From an uncultured delta proteobacterium (GTDB lineage: Bacteria > Desulfobacterota > Binatia > UBA9968): 64,000 nt of DNA. Shown piece after piece: positions 2,214-39,340 of the stretch. The stretch is from the NCBI GenBank assembly GCA_963737905.1, contig CAVTUQ010000028.1:160001-224000 (forward strand). The letters are read 5' to 3'. Position numbers and translations under genes: made by a program. Below the pieces are notes generated by a model. The model ran no database searches and was not told the DNA's origin. It worked only from the letters and a program-made list of their open reading frames with translations. Numbering within the stretch: position 1 is the stretch's first letter; every line of letters begins with the position of its first letter.

Positions 2214-3404
2214 TTATATCCCGGGCTGAGTACCGACGCTCCGCTGTGCCCGTCTTTCCCAGATTCCTCGGGGTAAAACCATGCCGAAACCCAGCAAGCG
2301 AGGCTGAGCCCATAGAATTCGGCAAAGCATATGCGCCGCTTGGTCCCGATTGTAGCGACCCAATAGAAGAATCGTTTTTTCATTGAGCAGAGCAAGCAGC
2401 CGGTCATAATCTCTACTACGAAACCGGTTTAAGACACACCTGAGGATCAAGTGCAGGCCGAGTTCGCGCCGGAGCGGTTTTAATTCCGTCAAATAGTCCC
2501 TGCGTCGCAGAATCGCATCGGCCGCCGCTTTCGCGCCCCGAAGTCCGGTCACAAGCCCGCCCACCGTTGTCACCTTGACCTGGGCGGCAGCATCGCCCAC
2601 GAGATAGACATCGGCGCCGGAAACATTCTTCCATTGGCGCGTGAAATGACTGTACGCGGGTACGCGAGCGGCCTGAATGTCTAGAATCTCTAAGCCTTGT
2701 CGAGCCAGAAACTTTTCGAGTTTAGTTCTACCGTGCTTGCCTTCCTCGGCGATAAAGCCCACCGCCGCCTGTTTTTGCGACTCCGGAATCAACCAGTAAA
2801 AGTACGGCGTATCTTCGGGCTCGAACCAAACTTGAGTCGTGTTCACACTGGCTCCGTCCGGCAGCTTGACGATCGCCTGAAGGATCGGCGTCGTCCCATG
2901 ACCGTCGCCGGTGGCCATTTTTGCCACGCGACTGAAACTCCCGTCGGCGCCGACCAGCGTTTTGGTTTTGAATTTCTCGACGCGATTTCGATACGTATCG
3001 TTAATGGTAACCGTGACCCCTTGTTCCGCGGGCTCGAGACTGAGAAACTTGCAGCCGCCCCGGATTTCAACCCCTTCATCGAGAGCTCTTTGGGCAAGTA
3101 AGCGAACCACCGTAGAACGCTCGACAACGAGATCCGGCATTTGCATCGGGATCGTCACCGACCGCCCCGGAGAAAACAGATCGATTTGTGTGATCTTATT
3201 GCAAACCGCGTCGCGCGGGAAAAAACCCAGAACGTCCGTCAAATGAGAGGTCGTGATCAACGTGCGTGATTCTGTATGCAGCACGTCGTTCGCATCAAAG
3301 AGCCGTACTCTCTTACCTTCGCGCGCCAGCAAGTAAGCTGCGAACAGACCCGCTGCCGAACCACCGACGATATCGACTTCCGCCACGTCCCCGATTGCTT
3401 TCAT
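2214..3404 (-). CDS. NAD(P)/FAD-dependent oxidoreductase, geranylgeranyl reductase-like
   Basis: IVGGSAAGL Rossmann-like motif, VGADGSFS, YFYWLIP, LVGDAAAQVKVTTVGG. Confidence 0.85.
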   Translation of the reverse strand: MKAIGDVAEVDIVGGSAAGLFAAYLLAREGKRVRLFDANDVLHTESRTLITTSHLTDVLGFFPRDAVCNKITQIDLFSPGRSVTIPMQMPDLVVERSTVVRLLAQRALDEGVEIRGGCKFLSLEPAEQGVTVTINDTYRNRVEKFKTKTLVGADGSFSRVAKMATGDGHGTTPILQAIVKLPDGASVNTTQVWFEPEDTPYFYWLIPESQKQAAVGFIAEEGKHGRTKLEKFLARQGLEILDIQAARVPAYSHFTRQWKNVSGADVYLVGDAAAQVKVTTVGGLVTGLRGAKAAADAILRRRDYLTELKPLRRELGLHLILRCVLNRFRSRDYDRLLALLNEKTILLLGRYNRDQAAHMLCRILWAQPRLLGFGMVLPRGIWERRAQRSVGTQPGI

Positions 3405-3433
3405 CTATCGATTTATTCGCCCTACCTGTATGA

Positions 3434-4005
3434 AAGCACGGAGCATGGAGCGCGGAGCACGGAGCCGGACGGGGAAATTTCGGATTTCGAATTTCGGATT
3501 GTTTTCCGACTTCTGCTCTCGTGCTCCGTGCGCTCTGCTAGTTGCTCTTTGCTCCTGCGCTTACCGCTTAGCTCCTAGCGCTTTGCTCTTGGCTCCCCGC
3601 TCCAAGCTCCCTGCTCCCAGCTGTTTTTCAAATCCGCAATCCGCAATCCGAAATTGTTCTTTGCTCTTACCGCTTCCTCTTGCTCCCTGCTCTGAACCAG
3701 AGGTCAGAGATCGAGACATGTTCAGCCGCCGAATCAGTAAATTCGCAGATGCAGAAACCCGATCTAAATTCGCAATGCAGAAACCCGAAAGGCTCAAGTC
3801 AGAGGCCAGCAATTTCGCAATCTCCGCAATCTATCTTACTTAGCTCTTTGCGCTTAGCTCTTAGTCTTAGTAAATCCGCAATTCGCAATTCGAAATCCGC
3901 AATTGTCTTTGCTCTTCCCCCTTACCCCTTACCTATTTGCTCTTAGCTCCCTGCTCTCTTGCTCCCTGCCCCCTGCTCCCCGCTCCAAGCTCCCTGCTCC
4001 TTGCT
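3434..4005. repeat. Mosaic of degenerate heptamer tandem repeats (GAGCNNG/GCTCCNT, AATYCGM, TTWGCTC, TCAGAGG families)
   Basis: 7-nt periodicity readable directly, e.g. gagcacg gagcatg gagcgcg; aatccgc aatccgc aatccga; both orientations present. Confidence 0.85.
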
Positions 4006-4192
4006 GTTCACCAAGTTGCCGGCCAGTAGACAGCGTCTACAGCAAGCAAATACCAACGCTTTTCAGATAGTTAGATGTTTTTACCTCGCGAGCTGACACC
4101 TGCGGTGAAAGCACTCGGATCTTACCAGGGCACTTCATGGAAAAATATCTCTTGTATTCAACGGTTTAGAGTAAATCCAAAATAGGATCAAT

Positions 4193-4208
4193 TGGCATAA
4201 CGGTTGCT
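4193..4208 (+). promoter_or_regulatory. Sigma-54 (-24/-12) promoter
   Basis: TGGCATAACGGTTGCT: GG-N10-GC consensus ~40 nt upstream of the FecR gene. Confidence 0.65.
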
Positions 4209-4248
4209 CCTGTGATACTACAGATTAACCCAGGAAAGAAGAAAAAAA

Positions 4249-4791
4249 ATGGCAAAAGTGATTCAGATGTTTCTGCAGTTACACGGGTGGAAGGGAAGCG
4301 CAGGACCGCAGAGACTCACGCGGCTGGTTTTCGCGCTTTTGGCTGGAGCAATCTTCACGTTGCTAGCCACGATCCCTGCCCTGGCGCAGACCCGTCAGGA
4401 GCAGGCCGAGCTAAAAGTGGTGGTGGGCGAAGTAGAGGTGCTCAGAAGAGGTACGACGACCTGGCAGGCGGCAAGCGTCGGGATGTTCCTTTCGGCCGGC
4501 GATGAGATCCGCGCCGCGCAAGATTCCGGGGCGGAGCTCGCTATGACTGACGGGAGCGTGGTCATGGTGTTCGCCCGGAGCCGGTTGCAGATCAAACAGC
4601 TCACGACCGACGCCGCGACCCGCACGTCATTTTTCCATCTGGTTGTCGGGGTAGTTCGGTACATTGTCGCGAAACCTGCAGTAACCTTGATCGGAACGCG
4701 TCAGAACGTTTTCTCCATCTCGACTCCGACGGCAGTCATGGCCGCAAGAGGCACAGACGGAATTATTTCCTACTACCCATCGCAGAACTAG
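4249..4791 (+). CDS. FecR domain-containing secreted protein (short paralog of 48478..49479)
   Basis: Signal peptide, GEVEV...L.AGDEIRA..DS.AEL...DGS, ISTPTAVMAARGT FecR motifs. Confidence 0.85.
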   Translation: MAKVIQMFLQLHGWKGSAGPQRLTRLVFALLAGAIFTLLATIPALAQTRQEQAELKVVVGEVEVLRRGTTTWQAASVGMFLSAGDEIRAAQDSGAELAMTDGSVVMVFARSRLQIKQLTTDAATRTSFFHLVVGVVRYIVAKPAVTLIGTRQNVFSISTPTAVMAARGTDGIISYYPSQN

Positions 4792-4967
4792 CACTATAGC
4801 AGGGAGCTTGGAGCGCGGAGCATGGAGCCGCTCTTTGCTCCCAGAGCCGGACAGCAAAAAGCGAAGCGCAAAGCGCCAAGAGTGAAGAGAAATCCGAAAT
4901 TCGCAATCCGCAATTACTTAGCTTCGCGCTCCATGCTCCCTGCTCTTAGCTCTTACCTCTCTGCCCT

Positions 4968-5648
4968 TTAGCGTTCCTGAAATTCGAAATCCGCAATCCG
5001 AAATTCGCAATTGCTTAGCTCCTTAGCTCTCTTGCTCCGCTGCTCCCTGCTTAACTTGCTCCCTGCTCTCCTGTCCCCATACACCCCCCGTCGCTGGAAC
5101 AACAGAACGAAAGCTTTCGCGAGAATGTAGGCGTCCAATCGGAGTGACCAGTTGTCAACGTACCAGACGTCCATCCGAACCCGCTCATTCCAGGGAACCA
5201 GGTTTCTGCCATGGATCCACGCCCATCCGGCCATCCCTGGCCTGAAATCAAATCGCCTGCTTTCTGACGGTCCGCAGTACGCGGCTTCGCTCGGTACCCA
5301 GGGCCGCGGCCCGACGATGCTCATGTCACCCTTGAGGACATTGAGGAGCTGCGGCAGCTCGTCCAGAGTCCATTTGCGCAACCAGCGCCCGACTCGCGTG
5401 ATGCGATCATCGTTCTCGCTTACAATCAGCCCATTCCCGATGGACTCAGCTCCGATCACCATGGTGCGGAATTTGTAGCAGCGAAACCTTCGCCGGTTCC
5501 TCCCCACACGATCCTGCACGAACAGAACTGGCCCGCCGTCATCCAACTTGATCGCCAGCGAGATCAAAGCGATGAGCGGAGAGAGCAGCAGCAGCGCGCT
5601 TGCTGCGACAACGATATCGAAGAGACGCTTCACGGCGAGGCTGACCAT
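4968..5648 (-). CDS. Bacterial sugar transferase (priming phosphoglycosyltransferase, PglC/WcaJ C-terminal type)
   Basis: KRLFDIVVA, F.Q.RVG, YKFRTM, DELPQLLNVLKGDMSIVGPRP; last ~35 aa are read through heptamer repeats. Confidence 0.93.
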   Translation of the reverse strand: MVSLAVKRLFDIVVAASALLLLSPLIALISLAIKLDDGGPVLFVQDRVGRNRRRFRCYKFRTMVIGAESIGNGLIVSENDDRITRVGRWLRKWTLDELPQLLNVLKGDMSIVGPRPWVPSEAAYCGPSESRRFDFRPGMAGWAWIHGRNLVPWNERVRMDVWYVDNWSLRLDAYILAKAFVLLFQRRGVYGDRRAGSKLSREQRSKRAKELSNCEFRIADFEFQER

Positions 5649-5651
5649 TGG

Positions 5652-6374
5652 AATTTCGGATTTCGGATTTCGGATTGCGGATTTATAACAGCAAACATAG
5701 CCTATGAAGAATTTTGGATTGCGGAGGAGGTATTATCTCGATGACAGAAAGATAAGTTTGTGAACTTGCAATTCAAAAATTTAAAATACTGACGAGCTGT
5801 TGCGGTCGAATCAGAAATTCGACATACGAAATCCGAAATTCGAAATTTCCTCAGACCGGCTTTGGCTTGTTCGCTCGCGTCGATCTTCCTATAGCGATGA
5901 AGATTGACAGGAGTTCACCAGCTTCCTTCAGTAAAGTCGTCCGGGCTTCAGTAATACCAAGGGAGACCTCCTCCATTACTTCTAGCCAGTACTGGGTTTC
6001 TGCAATTTCTTTTTCGACGATCCCGATCTTGTGGACAAAATCTGCGCGAGATTGCGCGCGATTAGCTTCGCGATAGTTCGCCCCGACTGATGTTCCTGAT
6101 TTCAGTAATTGATAGCCCAAAACGTCCGAAGTTTTCTTCTTCGGTAGCTCTTCCACGAAAAGGATAACGCTGACGGCGAACTTTTTCGTCCGTCGCTCTA
6201 GCTCATGCTTGTCCATGAAAGTACATTTCGGATTTCGGAATTGTTCTGAGTCGGGGTTAGGAAATCAAGAAGCGACCAGACAATCGAAAACATTTAGGAG
6301 CGTCTCAACACTTTGGTACCGGGCGAGTCCGGACAAATTCGAAATCCGCAATCCGAAATTCGAAATCCGCAATC
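5652..6374. mobile_element. Four-helix-bundle cassette copy 1 bounded by AATYCGM heptamer inverted arms
   Basis: Whole ~720-bp unit, including non-coding flanks, recurs at 12910..13607; mobility is inferred from the duplication. Confidence 0.6.
5851..6216 (-). CDS. Four helix bundle protein (23S rRNA IVP / TIGR02436-type)
   Basis: RTKKFA...QLLKSGTSVGANYREANRAQSRADFVHK...KE..ET.YWLE. Confidence 0.92.
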   Translation of the reverse strand: MDKHELERRTKKFAVSVILFVEELPKKKTSDVLGYQLLKSGTSVGANYREANRAQSRADFVHKIGIVEKEIAETQYWLEVMEEVSLGITEARTTLLKEAGELLSIFIAIGRSTRANKPKPV

Positions 6375-6454
6375 GCCTTTGCTCTTAGCTTTCTTGCTCC
6401 CTGCTCCCAGCTCATCCTTTACACAAATCCTACCGCTTGTTATAAATACTCGGA

Positions 6455-6757
6455 GTGGCTAAAAACCCAAAAAAAGCGGCATCTTACTCCGCGGTTTACA
6501 CGGTGGAGGAGTTCGCCAAAATTTTTAAGCTTTCACCGCAATCGGTACGAACCCTCATCCGAACGGGCGAGATTCCAGCCATTCGTATTGGGAAACAGCA
6601 CCGTATCCCTCAGGCGGTTGTCGACCACTATTTCGCTCAAGCGACCTCACCTCGGGAACGTGGGTTCGGCATGTGGAAAAAGAACCGCGTCCCAAGTCTT
6701 ACCTACGTCAACAAGCTGCGAGATCAAGAACAAAAAAAGCACAGAGCATGGAGCTAG
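6455..6757 (+). CDS. Excisionase-type helix-turn-helix protein, antitoxin-like, C-terminus runs into repeats
   Basis: YTVEEFA...V...IRTGEIPAIRIGKQHRIP (HTH_17-like) plus GFGMWK; opposite strand to the cluster. Confidence 0.7.
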   Translation: MAKNPKKAASYSAVYTVEEFAKIFKLSPQSVRTLIRTGEIPAIRIGKQHRIPQAVVDHYFAQATSPRERGFGMWKKNRVPSLTYVNKLRDQEQKKHRAWS

Positions 6758-7112
6758 GAGCGTGGAGCCGCCCTTAGCTCTTCATCCTTCGCACGTACCG
6801 CTTCGCGCTTATCTCTTAGTCCACAGTAAATCCGCAATTCGCAATTCGAAATCCGCAATTGGCTTCGCTCCCTGCTGTCGCTACCAGAGATCAGAGGTCG
6901 GAAGTCAGAGGTCAGAAAATTCGCAATCCGCAATCCGAAATTCGCAATTCCCTTTGCTCTTCCCCCTCACCCCTTTGCTCTTAGCAGTCTTTTAAATTCG
7001 CAATCCGCAATTCGAAATTCGAAATCGCCTTTGCCCTTAGCTCTCTTGCTCCGCGCTCCAAGCTCCCCGCTCCATGCTCTTACCCCTTACCCCTTTGCTC
7101 TTTGCCCCTTTC
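6738..7112. repeat. Heptamer repeat mosaic (four families)
   Basis: gagcatg; aatccgc aattcgc aattcga; tcagagg tcggaag tcagagg; ttacccc ttacccc tttgctc. Confidence 0.8.
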
Positions 7113-7114
7113 CC

Positions 7115-8344
7115 TCACCCCCCTGCCACCCTCCTCAACAGTTCGTCATACTGCGCAACCGCAACGTGCTTGGAGTGGTGCGCTTCCGCGTATCGGCGGC
7201 CTTGCTGCCCCATCTGCTCGCGCAGCGCGGCATCTTCATACAGCGTCACAATGGATTCGGCCAGGCGCTCAGCATCGCCGGGGCTAATGCAAAGACCACA
7301 GCCCGCGCTCGCCACAGCGCGCGCGACTTCGCTGTCGTGTTCCGCCGCTGCCAGGAGCGGCCGGCCGCTTGCCATGATTTCGTAGATCTTGGATGAAAAC
7401 GAATCGTTGGCCGCACCGTTTCGATATAAAGAGACTTGCACGTCCGAGGAGGCCCTCATCCACGGCAGGTTTTCGCGCGGCTGAAACGGCAGGAAGCGCA
7501 CATTGGTCAGCCTCAGCTTCGCAGCCTTTTCTTCCAGCTCGGCTTTCGCCACCCCATTGCCGACTATTAGAAAAAATATATCGCGCTGCTCCCTGAGGAG
7601 CAGGGCCGCATCCAGCAGGGTGTCGAGATCGTACACGTAGCCGAGGCTCCCCGCATAGCTGACGACAAATTTGTCAGACAAACCCTGTTCGCGGCTGAAA
7701 TCGTTTTCCCTCGGCAGCGGGCGAATAAATTCCGTATCGACGAAATTCGGGATCACCGAAACTTTTTGCTTCGGCACCTTCTTGGCCAACAAGCTCTCCC
7801 GCATGGCTGAAGTGATGACCGTCACATGCGCCGCTTTGCGGTACATGAAATTTTCCATCGACCTCAGGGCGGCGATGGCGTAAGGATTGTGAAGTTGGCC
7901 GGCACGAATCGGCACATCAGGGTAGAGGTCCTGAACGTTGTAGATGAACGGGGCTGATTTCAAATTTTCGAGCACCCACGCCGACAAGCCGCTGAAAAAA
8001 GAGCCGTTGGGACAGAGCACGACATCCCAGGCCCGCCGCGACAGCGCTCCGGTCACAGTTGCCAATGCGTTGTAGGAGACATAACTCATGAGCCGGTTAG
8101 CCATAGTTTTTTTTCCGGGAGCGTAGACATAAAGCCGAGTAACATCCATCTCCCCGTAACGCTCGTGCTCGACCAGCTTGCCGCGGTACTCATCCCACAC
8201 GCGAAAATTTTCATAATGCGGAAACGCCGTGATCACCGAGACCTCGTGGCCTCGTGCCGCCAACCCCTCGCAAAGCTGCGCCATCAGCAATCCGGTCGGA
8301 TTCACATCGGGCGGAAATTGGATGATAGGGAGGAGAATGCGCAT
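7115..8344 (-). CDS. Glycosyltransferase family 4 (WcaI/WbuB-like)
   Basis: FPPD...GHEVSVITAFPHY, QDLYPD, VIPNFVD, SKIYEIMASGRP. Confidence 0.9.
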   Translation of the reverse strand: MRILLPIIQFPPDVNPTGLLMAQLCEGLAARGHEVSVITAFPHYENFRVWDEYRGKLVEHERYGEMDVTRLYVYAPGKKTMANRLMSYVSYNALATVTGALSRRAWDVVLCPNGSFFSGLSAWVLENLKSAPFIYNVQDLYPDVPIRAGQLHNPYAIAALRSMENFMYRKAAHVTVITSAMRESLLAKKVPKQKVSVIPNFVDTEFIRPLPRENDFSREQGLSDKFVVSYAGSLGYVYDLDTLLDAALLLREQRDIFFLIVGNGVAKAELEEKAAKLRLTNVRFLPFQPRENLPWMRASSDVQVSLYRNGAANDSFSSKIYEIMASGRPLLAAAEHDSEVARAVASAGCGLCISPGDAERLAESIVTLYEDAALREQMGQQGRRYAEAHHSKHVAVAQYDELLRRVAGG

Positions 8345-8349
8345 GGCTG

Positions 8350-9670
<1,321 letters not shown>

Positions 9671-9673
9671 TAA

Positions 9674-10681
9674 TTATCGATAGTTAGTCATATGCGCTTC
9701 GCGCCGAGCTAGCTCCAGGTCGGCTTCGACCATGATCCGGACTAACTCTTCGAATTGCACTCTTGGTTCCCATTTTAATTTCCGTTTCGCCTTGGAGAAA
9801 TCGCCGACCAAGGTATCGACCTCGGCGGGACGTAGGTAGCGGCGGTCGATTTCGACATGATCGTGCCAATTCAGATCGAGCAAGCCGAACGCCTTATCAA
9901 CAAATTCCTTCACACTGTGACTCTCGCCGGTAGCGATAACGTAGTCGTCGGGCTTTTGCTGCCGCAGCATGAGCCACATAGCTTGAATGTAGTCGGGCGC
10001 ATAACCCCAGTCTCGTTTGGCCTCGAGATTACCCAGATAGAGTTTCTCTTGTAAACCGAGCTTGATTCGCGTCGCCGCCCGCGTGATCTTGCGACTAACG
10101 AAGGTCTCGCCTCGCCTCGGACTTTCATGATTAAACAGAATGCCGTTGCAAGCAAAAAGACCGTAGGCTTCGCGGTAATTGCGCACGATATAAAATCCGT
10201 AGGCCTTGGCGCAGCCGTAAGGACTGCGCGGATAAAAGGGCGTGGTTTCCTTTTGCGGAACTTCTTGAGCTAAGCCGAACAGTTCGCTCGACGACGCCTG
10301 ATAAAATTTCGGTTTGATCCCGGTTTCGCGTATCGCCTCCAACAGCCTCACCGTGCCGAGGCCGGTGATTTCGCCGGTATATTCCGGCACGTCAAAACTC
10401 ACCATGACATGGCTCTGCGCGCCCAGGTTATAGATCTCATCGGGTCGGATGTCGCGCAGTATGCGATTTAGAGAGCTCGCATCGTTCAGGTCGCCATACA
10501 CCAGCTTGAGACGCGGATTAGGCTCATGAGGATCCTGGTAAATATGATCGATGCGGCCGGTGTTGAATGAGCTGGATCGCCGTATGATGCCGTAAACGTC
10601 ATACCCTTTCTTCAGCAGGAACTCGGCCAAATACGAGCCGTCCTGCCCAGTGATACCGGTTATGAGAGCGGTGTTGGACAT
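9674..10681 (-). CDS. gmd: GDP-mannose 4,6-dehydratase
   Basis: [44 protein letters not shown]. Confidence 0.97.
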
Positions 10682-10689
10682 TTTAACTA

Positions 10690-10840
10690 ATGGCGGATGG
10701 CATATGGCTTATAGCGGATAGTTTATAGCAAATGGCTTATAGCGTATGGCGGATAGCTTATGGCGGCTGGTGACGTATAGATTATAGCAAATAGCAAATG
10801 GCTGATGGCGTATGGAATATAGCTTATAGGATGGCTGGCT
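10690..10840. repeat. ATRGCNN heptamer tandem array directly upstream of gmd
   Basis: atggcgg atggcat atggctt atagcgg atagttt atagcaa atggctt atagcgt atggcgg atagctt... Confidence 0.85.
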
Positions 10841-11082
10841 TAACGCGGGCTGAGGGTATTTCTGAATGCATTTATGTTGTACCCATTGGTACATGGACTA
10901 CTCTGTGGTGAAGAACGATTCGGATATATCACCGCGGAGGCGCGGAGGGCACAGAGTAAAATTTCTCAATAAAAAATACTCCCAACTCTGTGTGCTCTGC
11001 GTCTGTGGTGAATCTTCTTTCACAGTAAACCCAGAAGAGCCTTCTTTTCCGGGTACCTGTTACTATTTGCGATCGGCATGTG

Positions 11083-12905
11083 CTATACGCTAGTTTTCTC
11101 TACAAGAAAACTCCCGATGGCCAGCACATCCATCTTCGTTCGTTTGAAACAGTCAATCGCCTCTTCCGGCGTGCAAACGACCGGCTCGTTCTCATTGAAA
11201 GAGGTGTTAAGCAGGACCGGAACGCCGGTAAGATTTTCGAATTCTTTGATCAGTTTCCAGTAGCGCGGATTCCCATCACGGTCGACGGTTTGAAGCCTGC
11301 CCGTGCCGTCGACGTGAGTCGGTGCCGGAATCACGGAACGCTTCTCTTGCTTAACCTTATAGGCCATGAGCATGAACGGCGACGGATGGGTCTCTTCGAA
11401 ATAATCTCCGACGCGCTCAAGCAAGATCGACGGTGCGAAAGGACGAAACGGTTCGCGGTGTTTTATTCGGCTATTTAGCATGTCTTTCATCTCGGCCCGG
11501 CGCGGATCGACCACAATGCTCCGATTTCCCAAAGCACGAGGGCCAAATTCCATTCGTCCCTGAAACCACCCACGACTTTCCCCGTCGGCGATCTTCCGCG
11601 CCGTGGCCTTGACCAACTCTTCTTCACTCAATTCCGCTATCCGAAATCCGAAATCCGAAATGGTACGGATGACCGGTGACCAATGACCGACGACTTCTGG
11701 CTCCCTGCTTCCGGCTCCCTGCTCCGTGCTCCCCGCTCCCATCCCCTCACGCCTCACCCCTAACGCCTCACGAATTTGGCTATCGCCAAATTCCGGCCCC
11801 CAATACGTATGCTTCATCTCGAACGAGCGCGGTTGTCCCAGAATTTGATTCCACACATAAAAAGCTCCGCCGATAGCGAGCCCTGCGTCGCCGGCCGCGG
11901 ACTGGATATAGACTTTCTCAAACGGTGTCTTGGCAAGAATTTTCCCGTTGGCGACGCAGTTGTAAGCCACACCGCCGGCGAGGCAGAGTTTTTTTATGCC
12001 GTAGAGTTTGTAAAGTCTGTCGAGCATGGCGAGCATGGCATCTTCGAGCCGGACCTGCAGCGACGCGGCGATATTCTGATGCCGCTTTTCGACAGGCGCT
12101 CCTGCCGCCCTTTCGGGTCCTAGTTGTCTCGTGAGGAAATCTCCATAGAGCTTGCCGATCTTCGGCTCACCGTCCCGCCAGGTCATTTCCGGAGCCGATT
12201 TGTGATGGATGAAGTGATCCAACCCGAGTGAAAATCCGACATTGCCATTGATTTTAACGATCTCGTCGAAGCGGTCGCGATATTCCGGCTGCCCATAGGA
12301 GGCCAGACCCATGACCTTGTACTCATCGCCGTAGTTCCAAAAACCTAAATATTGAGTCAGCGCTGTGTAGTAGATGCCGAGTGAATGCGGGAATGCAATC
12401 GACCCTCGATCCTCTGATTTCCCTGCCCCAAACCCCACATCGTGCTGGCAAAGTCGCCCAATCCGTCGATCGACAACAAAGCCGCTTCCTCGAAAGGCGA
12501 AACAAAAAACGAACTCGCCAGATGGGCTTTGTGATGCTCCACCCGATGGATTTGCGCCTTGATCTCCTCACGCCTCACTCCTAACGCCTCACCCAATTCT
12601 TCCTGAATGCCAAAAAACTTCGCCTGCGCGCCAAGACGATTGAGCCCCAAGCGCGGTATTTTTACCGCATAAAGCGCCTTCCTCCAAATTCGCGCTCGCG
12701 GATCGCGCGCCACCGCCACGTGTTCAATGTCCTTAGCTTCCAAACCCGCTATCTTCAGGCAGGCTCGAATAGCGTTGGCCGGGAAACCCGCCGCGTGCTT
12801 TATGCGGATAAAGCGCTCCTCTTCCGCCGCCGCGACGAGCTGCCCGTCTATGATCAGTGCTGCGCTGGCGTCACCGTGGTAAGCGTTGATGCCGAGAATA
12901 ACCAT
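11083..12905 (-). CDS. Carbamoyltransferase (NodU/CmcH family), one frameshift near 12400-12440
   Basis: N-part ILGINAYHGDASAAL...AAAEEERF, EHHKAH, DGLGD; C-part DEYKVMGLASYG, AGGVAYNC, GDAG, EFGPRALGNRS, REPFRPFAP, LLNTSFN. Confidence 0.9.
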
Positions 12906-12909
12906 GAGT

Positions 12910-13607
12910 AATTTCGAAATGCGGATTTAGAATGCGGATTTATAAAGCAAACATACCTATGAATAATTTGGATGCGGAGGAGGTATCGGCTCTCGAGGAC
13001 AGATTGAAAAATCTAAAATACTACAAGCTGTTGCGGTCGAATCAGAAATTCGACATACGAAATCCGAAATTCGAAATTGCCCTCAGACGCCTTCGGCTTA
13101 TTCGCTCGCGTCGATCTTCCTATAGCGATGAAGATTGACAGGAGTTCACCAGCTTCCTTCAGTAAAGTCGTCCGGGCTTCAGTAATACCAAGGGAGACCT
13201 CCTCCATTACTTCTAGCGAGTACTGGGTTTCTGCAATTTCCTTTTCGACGATCCCGATCTTGTGAACAAAATCCGCGCGAAATTGCGCGCGATTAGCTTC
13301 GCGATAGTTCGCCCCGACTGATGTTCCTGATTTCAGTAATTGATAGCACAAAACGTACGAAGTTTTCTTCTTCGGTAGCTCTTCCACGAAAAGGATAACG
13401 CTGACGGCGAACTTTTTCGTCCGTCGCTCAAGCTCATGCTTGTCCATGAAAGTACATTTCGGATTTCGGAATTGTTCTGAGTCGGGGTTAGGAAATCGAG
13501 AAGCGACCAGAAAATCGAAAACATTTAGGAGCATCCTCAACACTTTGTAAACAAGTAACCGGGCGAGTCCGGACAAATTCGAAATCCGCAATCCGAAATC
13601 CGCAATT
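12910..13607. mobile_element. Four-helix-bundle cassette copy 2
   Basis: Highly similar to 5652..6374 including flanks and heptamer arms. Confidence 0.6.
13013..13447 (-). CDS. Four helix bundle protein copy 2 (1-nt indel at stop extends C-terminus into repeats)
   Basis: MDKHELERRTKKFA... differs from 5851..6216 at only a handful of residues before the tail. Confidence 0.88.
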   Translation of the reverse strand: MDKHELERRTKKFAVSVILFVEELPKKKTSYVLCYQLLKSGTSVGANYREANRAQFRADFVHKIGIVEKEIAETQYSLEVMEEVSLGITEARTTLLKEAGELLSIFIAIGRSTRANKPKASEGNFEFRISYVEFLIRPQQLVVF

Positions 13608-13683
13608 GAGTTTGCTCTTTGCTCTCTCTTGCTCCAAGCTCCCAGCTCCTTGCTCGTTGCTTTATTTCCCTTACCCCTAACGC

Positions 13684-16600
13684 CTAACCCTCCAAATACA
13701 GCGCTTTAAAATCGTGTCTGGGGATTGACATGCGTATTTTTCCGGCTGCAATACTGATATCTTGTTTCGACTCTGCATCCGTAATCGTGGTCTTTGCGGG
13801 ATTTAGACCCAACCCAGAAATATCTACTTTAACATCTCCCGTATAATCTTCGCCTATATTCGTAAGAAAAATCAGGGCTGAGTTTGTACGCGTATAATAG
13901 CTGACTTTAACACTCGAATTATCAGGTTGAACGGCGGTCTGTTCCCAAAACCCCCTAAAATTCACATCTGCGGCGGTAATGCCGAAATTTTTTTTTATCG
14001 TCGCAAACCATGGCGCAGGGTCAATAGGTAAAACGTCATGAATTGCCAATACGCCATACATTGCGCGAAGCGCTTTTGTATACTCGGCCCGCAGATTGTA
14101 GAATTTAATATAATTCAAAAAGACCGGGGTAAGCCCAAATTTTTGGCTTCGAGATAACCCCCGAAGCCACTCTGAACCAAGCTTCCCATTGCCCCAAAGA
14201 TCGATCCAGTCAGGATCGGTGGGTTTGTGAACATGAAAGCCTCACCGTCGCTTGCGACATCAGCAAAAGCAAAAGCATGGGGATACATCTTTGCAGTTGT
14301 ATGAAGCCAAATGACCGGCCGCTTGCCATTGTCCAACATCACCTGTCGGAGACGTTTCAATTTTTCCCTCATGCCAAGCAGCATGTACCCAGCTCCATGG
14401 GTTCCATCCTCTTTTATGTAACCGCCGCTCAACAGCGAGGCGCTCGTAAACGGTTCAGGCTCGTCAATGTACAGGCCGTCGTAGGTATTGGTCGAGAGCG
14501 CGTTGTTTATATGGTATAGCCAATAGTCGGCATCGCCTTTAGTGGGCGCAGAGATCCAGCCGTCACTAGCTGTTTCCGTTTTGATTGGATCCAGATCGAC
14601 CTAGGTATGACCGCCCGCCCCAATTGTCACATGGAAATTCGTAAAAGGCACAACCTTCCGCTTCTGATCTCTTAAACCCTGGATTGCCGTTTTGTACAGA
14701 TTATTATCACGAGGCACTAATGAAAAAATTGGAAAGTTTGCATTGGATCTTCCTCCAGATGAATGACCCCGCCAATCCCAATATACGTCGAAATCATTAT
14801 TCGGGAATACAGAAGTGCCGCCGGCTGCCCCGAACCGCCCGCCTCGCCAATCTGCCGGCAGTGGCTTTACAGGGGTCGCCTCATAACCCAAAACTTATTT
14901 CTATGGGTTCGTTCAATACAAAATCCTTGTTGACAAGAATATTTTGCAGCCGCACGTTCCCGTTGCCATCGCGAATCATCTCCTGCATGGGAAGCGATTC
15001 GTCCACACGCCAGCCGCTGGGATTTTCCGCAAACCATTCAAGCCCGCGATCGTCGTCAGAGAAAAGCACAACCGGCAAGAATTTGGACTTCTGTGGTCGT
15101 TGCTTAAGATTAGTATGAAACGTTCCAGGCGTGCTGGGCACGGCGGATTTATATGGATACCACCAATACGGTTGATCGGTTGTGGTGTGCATAAAAAGTG
15201 CCCGGCTTGAAGGCAGCACTGTCTGTAAACGCACGCTTTTAATAGTTACCGGACCAGCTGTGGAGAAAGTTTTAGCGCGATAAGCATCATGCCGTCATAC
15301 TCTAAGCTTCCGCTTACCCTGGCGGTTATTCCCTGACCCTCCGCAGTACCCTCCCAGTTGACTATATCTGGTTGGATCGACGTAATTGACAGTGATGATG
15401 GCTTCAGTTCGAACGTTCCGCTGCCTTTATCAATTTCCAACGCAACCGGGCTTGCCAAGAGGTGCTGACCCTGCGAGGTGATTTGGCTCGGCAAACCAAA
15501 ACCACCGGTAAGATCATACTCTCTTCCCCATACGCTGAGTTTTAAACCATTCGCCGCTATGGCGGTCCATGGGGGTTGTATCTTCGTGCTTACACCTAAC
15601 GAATTTCCAAGCCATGAGGTTTTTGGCAATACAAAGGATGAAGAATTCTTAAACGCAAGCACCGAGTTTCTACGATCAAGAAGTTTAACCGTGGCATAAT
15701 AAGAACCTGGAGTCATATTGCCAATGGAGATGAGCGACTCGCCAAATCCGCGACGAAGTTGCGTGATATCTCCGGACTTAATCAACTTACCATCACTATA
15801 AACATCCACTGTGTATTTGACTCCGGCCACTTCAAAATCATTTCCAGAATCTGCAGCGATACTTAACTTTCCTATCCCTGGGCCCCATTGGGCGGTAACA
15901 TCGATTCCGTGTGGATCAATGGGCGTGAGAGGGTTTGATGTCGTTGCCGTAAATGCTGCGGCAACTTCAGTCGGGGTGAATGCAAAATTGTAGCTGCCGA
16001 ATTCATCAATCGTAACGTCTTGAAAACCACCAAACGAAGGACCAATACTGAAAGTGGGCAAAGCCACAGAAGGCATCGGACTGACGAAAATTTTGTCTTG
16101 TTTCAGGGCTCCATCAAGGTAGACTTTGTGATTGATTCCCTGCCAGGTCCAGACCACGTGGTGCCACTCTCCTGGTTTAAACGAAAATCCGCCAGTGCCT
16201 ATCTTCTCTTCAATTGAAGGAACTAGTTTCATGTTGAAGATAATCTCGCCGGGAAGCGTAACCGTGGAGTTTTTTTGGTCGGGCCTATCCGGTAAAAAAT
16301 TGGCCTCTACGTGCGGTGGACCTGGATATATGTAGAAAAGCTGCGGCAGTCCAACGGTGCTCAGATTATTGAGTTTAATCCAGAATGCTATGCTCCCCCG
16401 GCGAGTATCGAGACGTTCTATATCGCTCCTAAGCTGGCTACCCGTTTTATCTTTTCGAATGAATATGCCCTCGCCAATTTTCCCGTTTGGGTCAAACGTA
16501 ACCCGTTGAACCTGTAGTTTGGAGTCACTTGACACCCGGCCATCGTTAAAACCCGCAAAAAGCAATGCACGTGGTGTCGGATGTGCAGCACAAGCTATAT

Positions 16601-19002: not shown

Positions 19003-21157
<2,155 letters not shown>

Positions 21158-33281: not shown

Positions 33282-34637
33282 TTAGAGGCGAAAACTGTGT
33301 TTTGTGACAAAGACGCCCTGTCCCAACGGCGGCAATCGGCCGGTCCCAAAGAAATCTCCACTTTCAACTTCGAATGTTCCCGCATTCCGAATCCAATCGG
33401 CGATCGCTCCATTCACGGTAGCGTACAATGTAAGATGATAGCGGCCGGGTAAGAGTGGAAAGGCAGGGATTTTCACCGAGATCTCGCGTACCTCAGCTGA
33501 AACAAGTAGAAAGTCCCCTTGCGCGATGGCCGTATCTAATAACAACACCCGCTGGCCGATGTTATTGTCCACTCCGATGCTAACGTGGAAATTACGGAGA
33601 TCGCGAGCGTGCGGGTTGCTAAACTTTATCACTAAAGTGCCCGGTGCACCGCATACAAAGGCACCTAGCGGTTTGGCATCTTTGTTACGCAACTCAATAC
33701 CTATAAACCGAATTGCACCAGATCCCTGCCGATCCAATCGTTCCTCGATCTTCATGTCAACTAGGCTGGTGGATTTGTATTGATAATGATGAATCACTTC
33801 CGCAATGTCTCCCTGCGAAGCGACTCGACCGCTGGAAAGATGCAGCCCCGTGTGACATAGATTCTGCGCTGCTGCCATCTGGTGACTGACAAACAACACT
33901 GTGCGACCCCCTCGAGCGACCTCCGACATCTTGCCCAGGCATTTCTTTTGAAACTCAGCATCGCCCACAGCCAGGACTTCATCGACGATTAGAATTTCCG
34001 GCTCCAGGTGGGCGGCCACTGCAAACGCCAGCCGGACGTACATGCCGCTGGAATATCGCTTGACGGGCGTGTCAATGAATTTCTCCACTCCGGAAAAGTC
34101 CACGATCTCGTCGAATTTCTTCTGAACTTCGGCCCTCGTCATGCCGAGAATCGCGCCGTTCACGAAAATATTTTCGCGCCCGGTTAATTCCGGATGAAAG
34201 CCCGTTCCTACTTCCAGCAAGCTCGCCACCCGGCCACGGATACGCACGCGGCCTTCGGTCGGCTCCGTGATCCGGCTGAGAATCTTGAGCAGAGTGGTTT
34301 TGCCGGCGCCGTTGCGCCCGATGATGCCGAGTACCTCGCCCTGTTTCACCTCAAAATTCACCCCCCGGAGAGCCCAGAACTCCTCGCTAGCCAGAGGTCG
34401 GAGGTCAGAGGTCAGAGGTCGCAAACCAGAGGTCGGAGGCCGGAGGTCAGAGGTCGGAGCACCATTATCTGATCTCTGATGTCTGATCGCTGACGTCTGG
34501 CCAGAGAGCCAGCGTAGCGGTGCCGCCGCTTTTTCAGCGATGACATCGCGGAGCGCGACATACCGCTGATGATCCTGCTGGTGGCGGATCTTGTATTTCT
34601 TGCCGAGGTTTTCGACGCGTATGATGAAGTCAGACAT
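33282..34637 (-). CDS. wzt: Polysaccharide ABC transporter ATP-binding protein with C-terminal Wzt_C domain
   Basis: [29 protein letters not shown]; ~38-aa repeat-derived insert before EEFWAL. Confidence 0.93.
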
Positions 34638-34667: not shown

Positions 34668-35090
34668 TCAGATGTCAGAGATCAGAAAAGGGCCGGGGTT
34701 CTTGATCATACTACCAAGCATTTTCCCAACCTCTTGAGACATCAACGCTAACTCACGATGTTGTTCCAGCGTGAGAAAGCCGCACTCGCGAGCAAAATCC
34801 AATGAAGAATCAGTTTCGCTGTTTTCACCGTCGCAGTCGGTTAACTTGCTAATGAAATGCGCTTCGTATCTTCTCTTTGCCCAGGCCTCTCTTAAATTCA
34901 AGCAGACCGACCGCGATGACCGCCGTATTTGACTGGTCAGCGCAAAACGCTCTTCATCTGGGAATTTCTTGCTAAGTGTGAATATTTTCATCGCCAGATC
35001 ATAGGCCTTTTTGTAAACTTCCAAGTCTTTGGCTGAATTAAGTCTCACACCTTCCCCGCTGATCTCGGACTTCTGACTGCTGGTCTTCAA
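34668..35090 (-). CDS. Four helix bundle protein (third, divergent subtype)
   Basis: KDLEVYKKA...FPDEERFALTSQIRRSSRSVCLNLREAWAKRRY; start uncertain. Confidence 0.92.
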   Translation of the reverse strand: MKTSSQKSEISGEGVRLNSAKDLEVYKKAYDLAMKIFTLSKKFPDEERFALTSQIRRSSRSVCLNLREAWAKRRYEAHFISKLTDCDGENSETDSSLDFARECGFLTLEQHRELALMSQEVGKMLGSMIKNPGPFLISDI

Positions 35091-35958: not shown

Positions 35959-36228
35959 GCTAGCAAAGAGCAAAGGGGTAAGCGGTAAGAGCTAGGACAA
36001 TTTCGGATTGCGGATTGCGGATTTACCAAACGCTAAGTGCTAAGGGCGAAGCGGTAAGGGCAAAGAGCTAAGAGCATTTCGGATTTCGAATTGCGAATTT
36101 GAAGACTGCAAAGTGCTAAGCGGTAAGGGCTAAGTGTCAAGAAAACCGGCAAAGAGGTCTAGAATTTCGGAATTCGAATTGCGAATTTGCTGACTTCTGA
36201 TCTCTGACCTCTGGGATATTAGACACCC

Positions 36229-36447
36229 CTACTTAACTGCCTCAACCGGTAGGTTCTCAATACTTACATTAACAATGTCTGCCAAACTGAATCGCTGGCT
36301 CACATCCAGAACTTCTATGCCAATTACTTGACCGTTCGCACCGAAATCTACCACGACACCGTCTTCAATTTCTTTGGACTTCGCCACATGCGTCTCCGTG
36401 AAGTAAACGTAGATGGCGTCGGCCTCTTTGCTATATTCAATTTTCAT
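36229..36447 (-). CDS. DUF2283 family antitoxin-like protein
   Basis: MKIEYSKEADAIYV...VVDF...GQVIGIEVL. Confidence 0.85.
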   Translation of the reverse strand: MKIEYSKEADAIYVYFTETHVAKSKEIEDGVVVDFGANGQVIGIEVLDVSQRFSLADIVNVSIENLPVEAVK

Positions 36448-36614
36448 TGCCCCTCCAATCTACGGCTTATTGACGACACTGATAATGAGAACTTCCTCAC
36501 GGATAGCATGGAGCGTGGAGCTCGGAGCTAACTCAACCAGAGATCAGAAGTCGGCGGTCAGATGTCAGTAACTGCAAAGAGAAGAGAAAACTCCATTGCG
36601 GATTTGCTCGCTCT

Positions 36615-36804
36615 TTATAAATCGCGCCAAGCTTCATCCTCTTCCGGTCTAAGCCAGTCTCTGTTCAGTACTCCTTCACTCAAAATGGCCGTCTCCAATC
36701 TCTCTTTGGCATCCTGAGTTTTTAAGAAACGAACGAAGTCCTACCGGAAGATCCTCTATTTCCTGGATGAATAATTTTTTCGGTTGCATCTTCTTTGCGT
36801 CCAT
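36615..36804 (-). pseudogene. DUF2281-type antitoxin with internal deletion/frameshift
   Basis: IQEIEDLP / DFVRFLK...ETAILSE..L.RDWLRPEEDEAWRDL* in two frames. Confidence 0.65.
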
Positions 36805-36839
36805 TTTTAAACGCTGCGGGCAAAAAGTGGGCGCTGTCC

Positions 36840-37199
36840 CTAAATCCACGGGCCAAGAAATTCCAGCTGGTTTTGCATTTCCTCCATTGATTTCGCACCG
36901 ATTAATTTTAGAAGACCGCGCATCTGGTCTCCTACAGAATAACGTTGCTGCGGTGCGAGAATAATGCCCGCGTGTGATTTGCCCTCAGATAGATACTGCG
37001 TATGGAGCCGGCAGAAGTCGCCAACGTTAAAACTGTACAAGACGCGGCTGTACGTGGTCGCATACTCTAGATGCTCCTCATCTTTACGCTCGATCATGCG
37101 TGCTTCTAAAGACGAAACTACATCCACATTGCGAGCCCGCAAAGCTGTAATCAAGACATGGCGCATGGAATCCTCATCAAAGTACAAACGAATCGTCAT
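36840..37199 (-). CDS. DUF5615 PIN-like toxin
   Basis: IRLYFDED, DEEHL.YA, SFNVGDF, HAGII. Confidence 0.85.
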   Translation of the reverse strand: MTIRLYFDEDSMRHVLITALRARNVDVVSSLEARMIERKDEEHLEYATTYSRVLYSFNVGDFCRLHTQYLSEGKSHAGIILAPQQRYSVGDQMRGLLKLIGAKSMEEMQNQLEFLGPWI

Positions 37200-39012: not shown

Positions 39013-39340
39013 AGCGCTATGATAACCGCCGACGCTGCAAAAACAAGAGCCACCAAGAGCCGTCAGCCAGAGATCAGAAGTCAGAAGTCGGAGATCAGAA
39101 TCTCGCTAAGCGGCAAGCGCTAAGGGCGAAGCGCAGAGATCGGAATTCAGAAATCAGAGGGTCAGCCAGCTATAAACCAGAGATCAGCGATCAGAGATCA
39201 GAAGTCGGCAAATTCGAAATTCGCAATTCGAAATTCGCAATCCGCATTTTCTTAGCTCGATGCTCCTCGCTCCCTGCTCCCTGCTCCATGCTCTTACCCC
39301 TTACCCCTTACCGCATTGCCCTTTGCTTCGCGCTTCGCGC

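Follow-up and report, generated by a model that had tools for sequence, protein, structure and literature searches.

Introduction

The PF05635/TIGR02436 proteins form a very large family that, to our knowledge, has gone 30 years without an assigned function, and we likewise know of no explanation for the heptamer repeats of bacteria. ORF-bearing intervening sequences (IVSs) in the 23S rRNA of Leptospira were reportedly described by Ralph and McClelland in 1993. The closest described counterpart of the locus treated here is the IVS in helix 45 of the Coxiella burnetii 23S rRNA, which, in the relevant parts of PMC4990558, carries the PF05635 protein S23p in the loop of a stem of about 28 bp formed by terminal inverted repeats. 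Tandem GACAGAT heptamers of variable number lie at its 5′ end, the RNase III site is at the first repeat, and RNase III excises the heptamer-bearing stem. The same parts of that source report ORF decay in some copies, a sporadic distribution, apparent horizontal transfer and a pentameric structure for the PF05635-family protein Xcc0516, and a passage of a recent preprint terms the family functionally uncharacterised (bioRxiv 10.1101/2024.02.27.582315). Heptamer repeats dispersed as intergenic arrays are described for Xanthomonas (GGGAATC) and Nostoc (GGGGAYT), with 70-75 Xanthomonas arrays in convergent inverted pairs retained between species (PMC4692102); the paper treats G-quadruplexes, and in the passages found the term "S23" has 0 occurrences and no link to PF05635 is drawn. 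In REP/REPIN systems with their RAYT (Y1) genes, a single-copy gene lies between inverted short repeats, each gene clade has its own repeat, and the same repeat is dispersed intergenically as solo units and hairpin doublets. A literature search found no description of an array-flanked PF05635 cassette outside rRNA.

The 64,000-nucleotide stretch of DNA analysed here (the window) holds two paralogous copies, A and B, of such a cassette, and thereby links the PF05635/TIGR02436 family to heptamer repeats. The cassettes resemble the Coxiella IVS in the protein family encoded, in their tandem heptamers and terminal inverted repeats, with predicted stems of 33 and 23 bp, in the decay of one ORF and in their sporadic occurrence and apparent horizontal transfer. 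They differ in lying between protein-coding genes of a polysaccharide operon instead of an rRNA helix, in having four arms rather than two, one of which lies right against the start codon of the following gene, and in being present as two copies from which a direction of copying can be deduced; excision, established for the IVS, is here predicted by analogy. The REP/RAYT features listed above recur at this locus, but the flanked gene encodes a small four-helix bundle lacking known catalytic motifs, and the repeats are tandem heptamers rather than palindromic REPs. The units also differ from those of Xanthomonas and Nostoc in not being G-tracts. What is new here is the direction of copying, the decay of copy B, the state of both sites in a syntenic genome (G016) and the nature of the block ends.

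Two copies of one cassette

Alignment with MAFFT and blastn searches show window positions 5652-6413 (copy A) and 12910-13648 (copy B) to be one block in duplicate, 89.0% identical over 776 alignment columns with indels counted, and blastn places the cassette core at only 2 positions in the whole 6.7-Mb assembly. The duplicated cassette proposed in the first-pass annotation thus consists of two real copies, whose parts are given below (motifs in mRNA sense; identities are A against B).

6375-6413, minus strand: copy A tail module, GAGCWRG-type heptamers adjoining the 5′ outer arm; 39 nt, 85% with gaps excluded
6335-6374, minus strand: copy A 5′ (right) outer arm a1, (CGRATTK)n; forms 33 bp with a4 in the MFE fold; 78%
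6254-6334, minus strand: copy A 5′ (right) spacer, loop of an a1/a2 hairpin; 94%, with no copy elsewhere in the genome
6225-6243, minus strand: copy A inner (right) arm a2, (AAATCCG)n, 8 nt from the gene's ATG; 100% with the leader
5851-6216, minus strand: copy A intact PF05635/TIGR02436 four-helix-bundle gene, 121 aa, by profile matches and PDB 2RLD
5809-5847, minus strand: copy A inner (left) arm a3, (CGRATTT)n, beginning 4 nt past the stop codon; 98%
5685-5808, minus strand: copy A 3′ (left) spacer, loop of an a3/a4 hairpin; 91% without gaps, plus 30 gap columns
5651-5684, minus strand: copy A 3′ (left) outer arm a4, (AAATCCG)n, 3 nt before the sugar transferase ATG (5648); 61%
5631-5650, minus strand: copy A junction, TCCA, ATG and the first 5 sugar transferase codons, possibly carried over from a carbamoyltransferase start
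13608-13648, minus strand: copy B tail module, by alignment with the A tail
13575-13607, minus strand: copy B 5′ outer arm a1; forms 23 bp with a4 in the MFE fold
13456-13474, minus strand: copy B inner arm a2, by arm search
13013-13447, minus strand: copy B decaying PF05635 gene, with D31Y, G34C, S56F, W77S and a 1-nt indel
13040-13078, minus strand: copy B inner arm a3, by arm search and segment alignment
12910-12941, minus strand: copy B 3′ outer arm a4, degenerate, 4 nt before the carbamoyltransferase ATG (12905)

Both copies have the four arms, outer and inner on each side, that had been noted earlier, and an arm does stand within the claimed 3-5 nt of a start codon, at 3 nt in A and 4 nt in B. 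The genes so preceded are a Bac_transf sugar transferase gene and a carbamoyltransferase gene, whose Pfam domains begin at residues 7 and 3, respectively. Both cassettes lie inside a long minus-strand polysaccharide operon with a span of 46 kb; the genes flanking A and B are unrelated and the insertion sites non-homologous. The earlier description of the copies as near-identical including their flanks fits the core, with 10 differences in ORF codons 1-118 (97.2% identity), but the outer segments are far less alike, so that it holds for the core only. Similarity was also said to stop at the outer arms, and on the right it instead continues beyond the arm for about 40 nt, reaching a second array type; beyond the block, identity falls to the noise level of 46-53%. 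The duplication can be called recent in a relative sense only, synonymous divergence amounting to about 6 of roughly 85 sites.

Direction of copying and decay of copy B

The products of both copies match the PF05635 profile (61.7 bits for A and 57.9 for B against the Pfam cut-off of 33.8), and that of copy A scores 81.3 bits with the TIGR02436 profile of NCBIfam (cut-off 24) and matches the sequence of PDB 2RLD over residues 7-116 with an E value of 1.2e-18. Copy A has the family consensus at all 4 residues changed in B, and two of the B replacements strike alignment columns of which one has S in 69 of 73 sequences and the other W in 66 of 72. The 1-nt indel in B, possibly an error of the assembly, shifts the stop from about 13082 to 13013. 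A search of metagenomes, proposed earlier, yielded an independent contig (L130) with the site-B arrangement, in which a gene with 80% protein identity to A lies 4 nt upstream of a carbamoyltransferase gene 73% identical to that at site B. When this relative is used to root the comparison, 7 of the 10 ORF differences, among them all four amino-acid changes, prove to have arisen in B, and two synonymous changes in A.

The position of the L130 cassette upstream of a carbamoyltransferase gene marks B as the old site and A as the derived copy. Sequence comparison thus strongly indicates that copy A was derived from copy B and that, since copying, A has been under purifying selection while B decays. 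The search for empty alleles was also successful: in the syntenic G016, site A is an array-free gap of about 50-75 nt, and a different PF05635 gene with GCAGGGA arms occupies site B. The two insertions that the present genome has relative to G016 are both bounded by arrays. The locus offers a dated and polarised copying event in which old and new site are told apart and, of the two orthologous sites, one is empty and the other is taken up by another cassette, which narrows the candidate mechanisms.

A cassette design shared across phyla

The heptamer greatly exceeds chance expectation, a two-unit probe giving 77 matches against 2.83 expected (the highest of 100 shuffles gave 9), and 29 of the 112 period-7 arrays of the genome fall within the window, itself 0.95% of the genome. 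All 11 PF05635 genes of the genome are flanked by inverted arrays, with a separate unit for each locus or pair. By flank score, 7 of the 11 outrank every one of the 593 control ORFs taken from this genome, and the scores of 2 more are reached by 1 of the 593; the score of copy A, 26, is reached by none. Among the array-flanked PF05635 loci, the pair C27:7786 / C7:408121 has paralogous ABC_sub_bind genes around it and may stem from a segmental duplication.

The same arrangement recurs in other genomes, with flank scores of at least 14 at 46 of 66 scorable PF05635 loci against 6 of 205 neighbouring ORFs and an arm period of 7 at 39 of 52 loci, and metagenome contigs, serving as a replicate, have inverted arrays at 45 of 58 PF05635 loci. 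Mapped on the protein tree (50 rows), the arm-unit class requires 5 changes, which is the minimum (shuffles: mean 23.8, minimum 20), as against 20 changes for host phylum on the same rows, so that the arm unit tracks the protein clade and not the phylum. These comparisons support gene and arms forming one heritable unit across phyla. Where CGRATTK-class genes occur in other phyla, the same arrays are dispersed in all five genomes (5/5).

Transcription from the operon is suggested by the orientation of neighbours, the upstream one being co-directional at 60 of 61 external loci (baseline, 93 of 138 adjacent pairs), and no sigma-70-like site was found on the minus strand of 5500-7200. Operon read-through is least certain for copy A, the only one of the 11 genes with an antisense immediate upstream neighbour, an HTH_17 ORF at 6455-6757.

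Ends of the block and the route of copying

On balance, we favour reading A and B as promoterless IVS-like cassettes outside rRNA that were copied by host recombination at the arrays and are released by RNase III. A block of about 0.65-0.78 kb was very probably copied from its place ahead of the carbamoyltransferase gene into another array-bearing gap, the one before the sugar transferase gene, and the dispersed CGRATTK arrays would have given the host recombination or replication machinery portable homology. The route would be gene conversion or template switching between array-bounded slots, with no arm-recognising transposase involved. By analogy with the rRNA IVS, the cassette would be co-transcribed with the operon, the outer arms would form an RNA stem of 23-33 bp and RNase III would cleave this stem, freeing the mRNA of the small gene, so that the leader of the downstream gene would become very short. 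Should the arms prove to be RNase III sites, cassettes of this kind would act as intervening sequences at the mRNA level, splitting long operons into separately controlled pieces, and in the present operon the genes of a surface polysaccharide would be affected.

The main competing account, which we regard as unlikely although deserving of attention, is a non-autonomous transposable element with the heptamer arms as its terminal inverted repeats. An enzyme made from another locus, or the four-helix-bundle protein acting together with a host nuclease, would recognise the arms, and the unit bounded by them would be excised or copied precisely. Two copies at unrelated sites with ends in or near the arms, the empty site A in G016, the co-inheritance of arm class and protein clade across phyla and the dispersed arrays in the five genomes of other phyla are all in keeping with such an element. 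Its ends, however, do not behave accordingly: no target-site duplication was found at the block ends under three end definitions (longest shared direct word ≤4 nt), and the outer arms are the least conserved segments. The outer-right arm and tail form a generic module of the locus, present at least 11 times in the window, and those of copy A are closer to cassette-less modules (93% and 92%, the former a copy at 4980) than to those of B (86%). The divergence of the outer arms could nevertheless result from rapid array slippage following a precise transposition from arm to arm, and need not mean that the arms are older and specific to their sites. Similarity may also extend past the arm into the downstream gene, where from the ATG 11 of 16 nt match the carbamoyltransferase starts of B and L130 and the copy A junction (TCCAATGGT) is identical to that of L130. 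This is suggestive only of a carry-over from a carbamoyltransferase start, and the 11/16-nt resemblance is weak and may be due to chance or native sequence.

As first claimed, no transposase is present among the 53 window ORFs scanned, nor were integrase or reverse transcriptase families found among them; none of the 5 Y1 transposase genes of the genome has a period-7 array within 1.5 kb; and we know of no catalytic activity in PF05635. An intact duplicate at a second site with no transposase found indicates that this kind of cassette can be copied without one. Taken together, the missing target duplication, the divergent outer arms, the generic modules and the array-free Y1 genes favour array recombination over arm-specific transposition. 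The idea that the repeat-bounded unit moves as a block therefore survives in part, as the block was copied between non-homologous sites and gene and arms are inherited together; the arms are not supported as its exact transposition ends.

RNA folding and the downstream start codon

In the MFE folds of both copies the outer arms are joined (a1:a4), with mean pairing probabilities of 0.68 in A and 0.56 in B. The computed duplex energies for A and B are -47.2 and -30.3 kcal/mol for a1:a4, -27.7 in both for a2:a3, -19.9 and -21.3 for a1:a2, and -32.3 and -22.4 for a3:a4. The comparison of alternative folds that had been called for favours the stem enclosing the gene in both copies, by 14.5 (A) and 21.7 (B) kcal/mol over the best fold with local hairpins only. 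The genome has an RNase III gene, and we infer, on the Coxiella model, an RNase III-type excision of the cassette from the operon transcript. A wobble test over 54 loci gave 23 G-U-type and 24 A-C-type mismatches, and the absence of a strand signal means that RNA-level pairing is not favoured over DNA-level pairing. The one metatranscriptome match is a 162-nt contig inside the ORF, and RNA libraries can contain DNA. Both cassettes lie between protein-coding genes and no Rfam family matches positions 3000-14500 at E up to 0.1, which sets them apart by location from rRNA IVSs.

A cis-regulatory RNA switch, in which local hairpins (a1:a2, a3:a4) and nested stems (a1:a4, a2:a3) alternate to control downstream translation with a4 as the ribosome-binding region, seems somewhat less probable still than transposition, although it is compatible with the recombination and release reading favoured above. 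The energies of all four pairings make switching possible in the folding model, in A, B and L130 alike 3-4 nt separate the end of a4 from the start codon, and the inner arms keep 98-100% identity where neutral divergence is about 7%. The lead of the enclosing fold, however, leaves no near-degeneracy between states. The four-arm order (F, R, gene, F, R) is found at none of the 24 CGRATTK-class genome loci read, and of the 11 metagenome loci read L143 comes near it; L130, the closest relative, has outer arms only, the 3′ arm in G016 lies about 30 nt from the ATG, and no ligand or signal is apparent.

Arrays as possible parts of a slot system, and minor alternatives

A more far-reaching proposal, which we put forward as speculation of low probability, is that the arrays, instead of being passive packaging, operate a cassette system that needs no recombinase. 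Each PF05635 clade would recognise its own array, as RNA or as a DNA hairpin, and promote the copying of any sequence situated between two cognate arrays; the operon would be a set of exchangeable slots and the rRNA IVS the special case of a slot within rRNA. The match of arm class and clade, the array enrichment in the window, the array-bounded insertions and a sample of Verrucomicrobia in which a PF05635 relative is present in 16 of 16 genomes with arrays and 13 of 25 without would fit such a system. Against it, 8 of 14 array-bearing relatives of the present genome had no A-like gene (E up to 1e-10). Arrays are abundant even in G012, G016 and G011, relatives in which searches detected no close cognate gene, a further difference from REP/RAYT systems.

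No public read set spans either copy, as an assembly artefact or a piece of a larger segmental duplication would allow, but both are very improbable given the 10 ORF substitutions and several spacer indels between the copies, the unrelated flanks on both sides, the drop in identity outside the block and the site-B arrangement of the independent contig L130. An integron-type cassette, with the hairpins as attC-like sites for an integrase encoded elsewhere, would account for promoterless ORFs that share one strand and each have an imperfect hairpin behind them, yet it is scarcely credible where the gene lies between tandem heptamer arrays instead of carrying a single 3′ attC, with arm sequence varying by protein clade, no Phage_integrase match among the window ORFs scanned, and ordinary operon genes syntenic with G016 as neighbours.

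The four-helix-bundle fold of PF05635 belongs to a homologous fold family with Avd, the accessory protein of DGRs (PF22296, NF033474), according to parts of PMC10053308. The proteins of A and B match neither the bAvd nor the NF033474 model, and the scan of 53 window ORFs found no reverse transcriptase family. An unrelated cassette at 34668-35090 fails NF033474 (41.8 bits against 80) and passes PF22296 (48.5 bits against 40).

The two copies of the cassette

Copy A of the cassette is a derived duplicate of copy B, within an IVS-like type of cassette (after the intervening sequences, IVSs, of rRNA) that carries a gene of the four-helix-bundle family PF05635. The copies lie upstream of the sugar transferase gene (A, 5652-6413) and the carbamoyltransferase gene (B, 12910-13648) and align at 89.0% identity over 776 columns (MAFFT, blastn), and a blastn search of the whole 6.7-Mb assembly places the cassette core at these two sites only, the remaining matches to copy A being short array matches; the duplication proposed in the first-pass annotation is thus real. 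Both ORFs are on the minus strand and score above the PF05635 cut-off in a profile search, and the copy A ORF also matches TIGR02436 ('four helix bundle protein') and PDB 2RLD (E 1.2e-18). The best relatives of the gene come from Binatia MAGs, and its host is probably a soil bacterium of Binatia-like affiliation. Over codons 1-118 the two ORFs differ at 10 positions, comprising six synonymous third-position changes and four replacements.

In mRNA sense, both copies consist of a tail (a second heptamer array), the outer 5' arm a1 (CGRATTK), a spacer of 80-90 nt, the inner 5' arm a2 (AAATCCG), the gene, the inner 3' arm a3 (CGRATTT), a spacer of 100-125 nt, the outer 3' arm a4 (AAATCCG) and the downstream ATG. 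Arm orientation was read with strand-specific 6-mers, as the palindromic core of the arm unit leaves a loose regular expression unable to separate the strands. The four arms noted earlier in each copy are confirmed, ending 3 nt before the start codon of the Bac_transf sugar transferase in A and 4 nt before that of the carbamoyltransferase in B. Similarity had been described as ending at the outer arms; it continues through the tail and drops to noise farther out.

Identity between copies A and B by segment
Outer-left arm: 61%
Left spacer: 91% gap-free, with 30 gap columns
Inner-left arm: 98%
Inner-right arm and leader: 100%
Right spacer: 94%
Outer-right arm: 78%
39-nt tail past the outer-right arm: 85%
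Sequence beyond the tail: 46-53%, noise

Among the four public read runs examined (X1, X2, X7 and X12), the ORF is found at ~99% identity in short Logan contigs of X1 and X2, and the sole RNA match to the ORF is one 162-nt contig from X12; none of these contigs extends across a whole copy or a junction. The best public run contained at most 0.19 of the sampled words, and an exact 30-mer from the core had no match in metagenome contigs. Array-to-array 'joints' in Logan contigs have sides of 21-51 nt and are most likely hairpins of other organisms.

PF05635 genes between inverted arrays

Inverted short-unit arrays lie on both sides of all 11 PF05635 genes of the genome. Most loci have a unit of their own, with one unit common to the members of each of two sister pairs, and the units include GTTGAGR, AGCAGKA, GGCNNAT, CAGAGGT, AGCATGG, ATTTTCG and a GTTCAA type. 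A score for inverted arrays flanking an ORF (flank score) was calibrated on 593 ORFs of 100-200 aa picked at random from this genome (99th percentile 11, maximum 15). Seven of the 11 genes score at least 17, two score 14 (reached by 1/593 controls), one 12 (6/593) and one 10 (57/593). The top control ORF, at G000:C2:112785-113162 (G000 being the window's own genome), scores 15, is flanked on either side by GCGCAAAG-type arrays and could be a further cassette of this type missed by PF05635.

The design extends to other genomes. From 80 loci of named genomes, with relatives 48-67% identical, 66 had scorable 300-nt flanks, and 46 of these score at least 14 versus 6/205 neighbouring ORFs; the same score is reached by 45 of the 58 scorable metagenome loci (80 sampled). 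Among 52 external arms scoring at least 12, the period is 7 in 39, 8 in six and 9 in five. In all cases it is the C-poor arm version that lies upstream (A 500, T 423, G 374, C 167). A 76-row protein tree was built by a quick search from few columns and has many unresolved forks; arm classes were counted on it for 50 rows, after 11 weak-armed rows and 15 whose unit occurred once had been excluded. The six shared arm-unit classes need five changes, the minimum possible (shuffles: mean 23.8, minimum 20), and host phylum on the same rows needs 20; the CGRATTK class alone occurs in Binatota, Chloroflexota, Acidobacteriota, Methylomirabilota and Verrucomicrobiota. In the literature covered by our search, which lay outside subscription journals, heptamer-array arms around PF05635 genes are described for rRNA IVSs only. 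The consulted portion of PMC4990558 gives the Coxiella IVS three tandem GACAGAT heptamers at its 5' end, with an RNase III site at the first, and that of PMC4692102 describes inverted pairs of Xanthomonas and Nostoc heptamers with no link to the PF05635 family.

Polysaccharide loci house six of the genome's 11 PF05635 genes. In two of them the gene lies between Wzm (ABC2_membrane) and Wzt (ABC_tran), at window 34668-35090 and G000:C3:96151-96555, with different arm units (CAGAGGT and GTTGAGR), and the window copy has an additional 3' hairpin at 34391-34503. A fourth PF05635 gene of the window (42709-43167), between the BY-kinase-like ATPase and Wzy-TPR genes, has AGCATGG/CCATGCT arms at 42582-42642 and 43112-43141. 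At G000:C7:222320-226367 the order is lexA, a PF05635 gene with GTTCAA-type arms, two ORFs without a Pfam family, a second PF05635 gene with an internal TGA, and an integrase. The second sister pair, with ATTTTCG arms (G000:C27:7735-8163 and G000:C7:408058-408474), lies among tandem paralogous ABC_sub_bind genes in both places and, unlike A and B, might have arisen by duplication of a larger segment.

Direction of copying and decay of copy B

The closest relative found is on the metagenome contig L130, with 80% protein identity to copy A and ~76% nucleotide identity. It sits directly upstream of a carbamoyltransferase gene 73% identical to that of the window, its 3' arm ending 4 nt before the ATG, and the genes farther upstream differ. 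Hence the older of the two sites is that of copy B. With L130 as outgroup, seven of the 10 differences between A and B are derived in B, including all four replacements (D31Y, G34C, S56F, W77S); A carries two derived changes, both synonymous, and one difference is ambiguous. At each of the four replacement sites copy A matches the family consensus, with S in 69/73 and W in 66/72 aligned relatives. A 1-nt indel abolishes the stop codon of copy B; as such frame breaks may be assembly errors, the decay of B was judged on the substitutions.

A syntenic locus (~70% nucleotide identity) on contig C90 of genome G016, which belongs to a different genus within the family, runs through FAD oxidoreductase, sugar transferase, GT1, epimerase, GDP-mannose dehydratase and carbamoyltransferase. 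Its gap from the GT1 stop to the sugar transferase start is ~50-75 nt and free of arrays, versus 1467 nt in the window, and a different PF05635 gene with GCAGGGA/TCCCTGC arms lies directly upstream of its carbamoyltransferase gene, so that site A is empty in G016 and site B holds another cassette. The syntenic locus was not recovered from the same-genus genomes G001 and G002.

Origin of copy A

The earlier view that the repeat-bounded unit moves as a block is right as to outcome, one copy being derived from the other; the mechanism was more likely recombination at generic arrays than transposition defined by the arms. Whichever of three definitions of the block ends is used, the copies show no target duplication, and the reported lack of a transposase holds, as a scan of 53 window ORFs found no transposase or integrase family. 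Between the copies, conservation is lowest in the outer arms. The outer arm and tail of A match those of B at 86% and those of gene-less modules at 93% (4980), 92% (3630 and 48419) and 87.5% (6994); as these modules match as well or better, outer arm and tail are generic and probably pre-existed, which confines the A/B-specific block to ~5685-6334. The downstream junction of A, TCCAATGGT, is identical to that of L130, and from the ATG the sugar transferase matches the carbamoyltransferase starts of B and L130 at 11/16 nt; the N-terminus of the G016 sugar transferase differs. These similarities hint weakly that the copied block may have taken the ATG and the first few codons along. Given this junction hint, the divergent generic outer arms and the lack of both target duplication and transposase, copying between array-bearing gaps, by recombination (homologous or microhomology-driven) or by template switching, appears likelier than arm-specific transposition. 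A RAYT-like origin of the arrays was rejected, as no arrays lie near the genome's five Y1_Tnp genes.

Other G000-specific sequence surrounds copy A. A second insertion relative to G016 (3476-5012, ~1.5 kb), between the FAD oxidoreductase and sugar transferase genes, has CGRATTK arrays at its bounds, an opposite-strand FecR-domain ORF (4249-4791) and an ORF-less CGRATTK hairpin (3476-3501/3630-3655). A plus-strand ORF of the HTH_17/excisionase family of DNA-binding proteins (6455-6757), within a 1.4-kb stretch absent from G016, is followed by three arm-plus-tail modules (6828, 6917 and 6994). Contigs from two soil runs cover 6417-6585 and 6417-6668 with no differences, halting at the tail-module edge.

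RNA folding and transcription

In mRNA-sense folds, a1 and a4 pair over 33 bp in copy A (-47.2 kcal/mol) and 23 bp in copy B (-30.3 kcal/mol), with mean pairing probabilities of 0.68 and 0.56, respectively. The a2:a3 duplex (-27.7 kcal/mol in both copies) is compatible with a1:a4 pairing as a nested stem, and folds restricted to local pairs are worse by 14.5 (A) and 21.7 (B) kcal/mol. Rfam yielded no family match. By analogy with rRNA IVSs, RNase III, for which the genome has one gene, would cut the cassette from the operon transcript. A cassette living on operon transcripts fits the co-directional upstream neighbours at 60/61 loci (downstream 47/59; other adjacent pairs 93/138) and the lack of minus-strand promoter-like sites in 5500-7200, where the promoter scan gave two on the plus strand versus 1.1 expected. 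Against this view counts the immediate upstream neighbour of copy A, the HTH_17/excisionase-domain ORF, which is antisense. A wobble test of RNA versus DNA pairing gave no signal (23 G-U-type versus 24 A-C-type mismatches at 54 loci).

Dispersed arrays and the polysaccharide locus

Positions 3.4-50 kb of the window form a single long minus-strand polysaccharide locus encoding Wza, Wzz, a BY-kinase-like ATPase, a Wzy-TPR protein, Wzm/Wzt, glycosyltransferases, GDP-mannose dehydratase, epimerase, carbamoyltransferase and the priming sugar transferase. The CGRATTK heptamer is not peculiar to the cassette: a two-unit probe gives 77 matches versus 2.83 expected, and of 62 strict arrays genome-wide, 29 are on the window's contig, all within window 3481-49590. 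A unit-free scan counts 112 period-7 arrays in the genome, 29 of them in the window, which makes up 0.95% of genome length.

It is possible, though unlikely, that the PF05635 gene itself spreads arrays of its own unit. In most large array families of the genome, namely GTTCAAN (35 arrays), the CGGATTT type, GGAGCAW (13), ATTTTAG, GCCATAHG, GTTGAGR and CAGAGGT, the unit also flanks a PF05635 gene; GTTCAAN, the largest, is spread over many contigs, with some close inverted doublets. Dispersed CGRATTK arrays also occur in all five other-phylum genomes with a CGRATTK-class gene (45, 6, 49, 45 and 7 hits; G042 is unpublished), where a reversed-unit control gives 0 hits. Across 41 Verrucomicrobia genomes, a PF05635 relative (E <=1e-10) is present in 16/16 with arrays versus 13/25 without, the latter including the unpublished G056 and G063, a comparison confounded by kinship and genome size. 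Among the 40 relatives of G000, however, an A-like gene (E <=1e-10) is present in only six of the 14 with arrays; G012 (50 hits; unpublished), G016 (19) and G011 (8) have arrays without a gene at least 60% identical to A, and G020, at 71% completeness, has a gene 67% identical and no array hits. A requirement of arrays for their cognate gene is thus not supported among these relatives.

Several arrays of the window lie in or around other genes. A forward array (39210-39246) and seven reverse arrays (35999-37823) enclose 1.4-3.2 kb that contains a DUF433/DUF5615 pair (36840-37633) and several small ORFs. The asparagine synthase gene (19003-21157) is read as three ORFs, and a CGRATTK array (19483-19515) lies in a gap where ~90 profile positions are missing. 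The carbamoyltransferase gene (11083-12905) is read as two overlapping ORFs; frame breaks in either gene may be assembly errors. Within the carbamoyltransferase reading frame, arrays of the AAATCCG, TGACCNN, GCTCCCT and CCTCACG types (11630-11760) occupy the linker that joins its Pfam N and C domains, as they also do at 25670-25800 of L118 (G016:C90).
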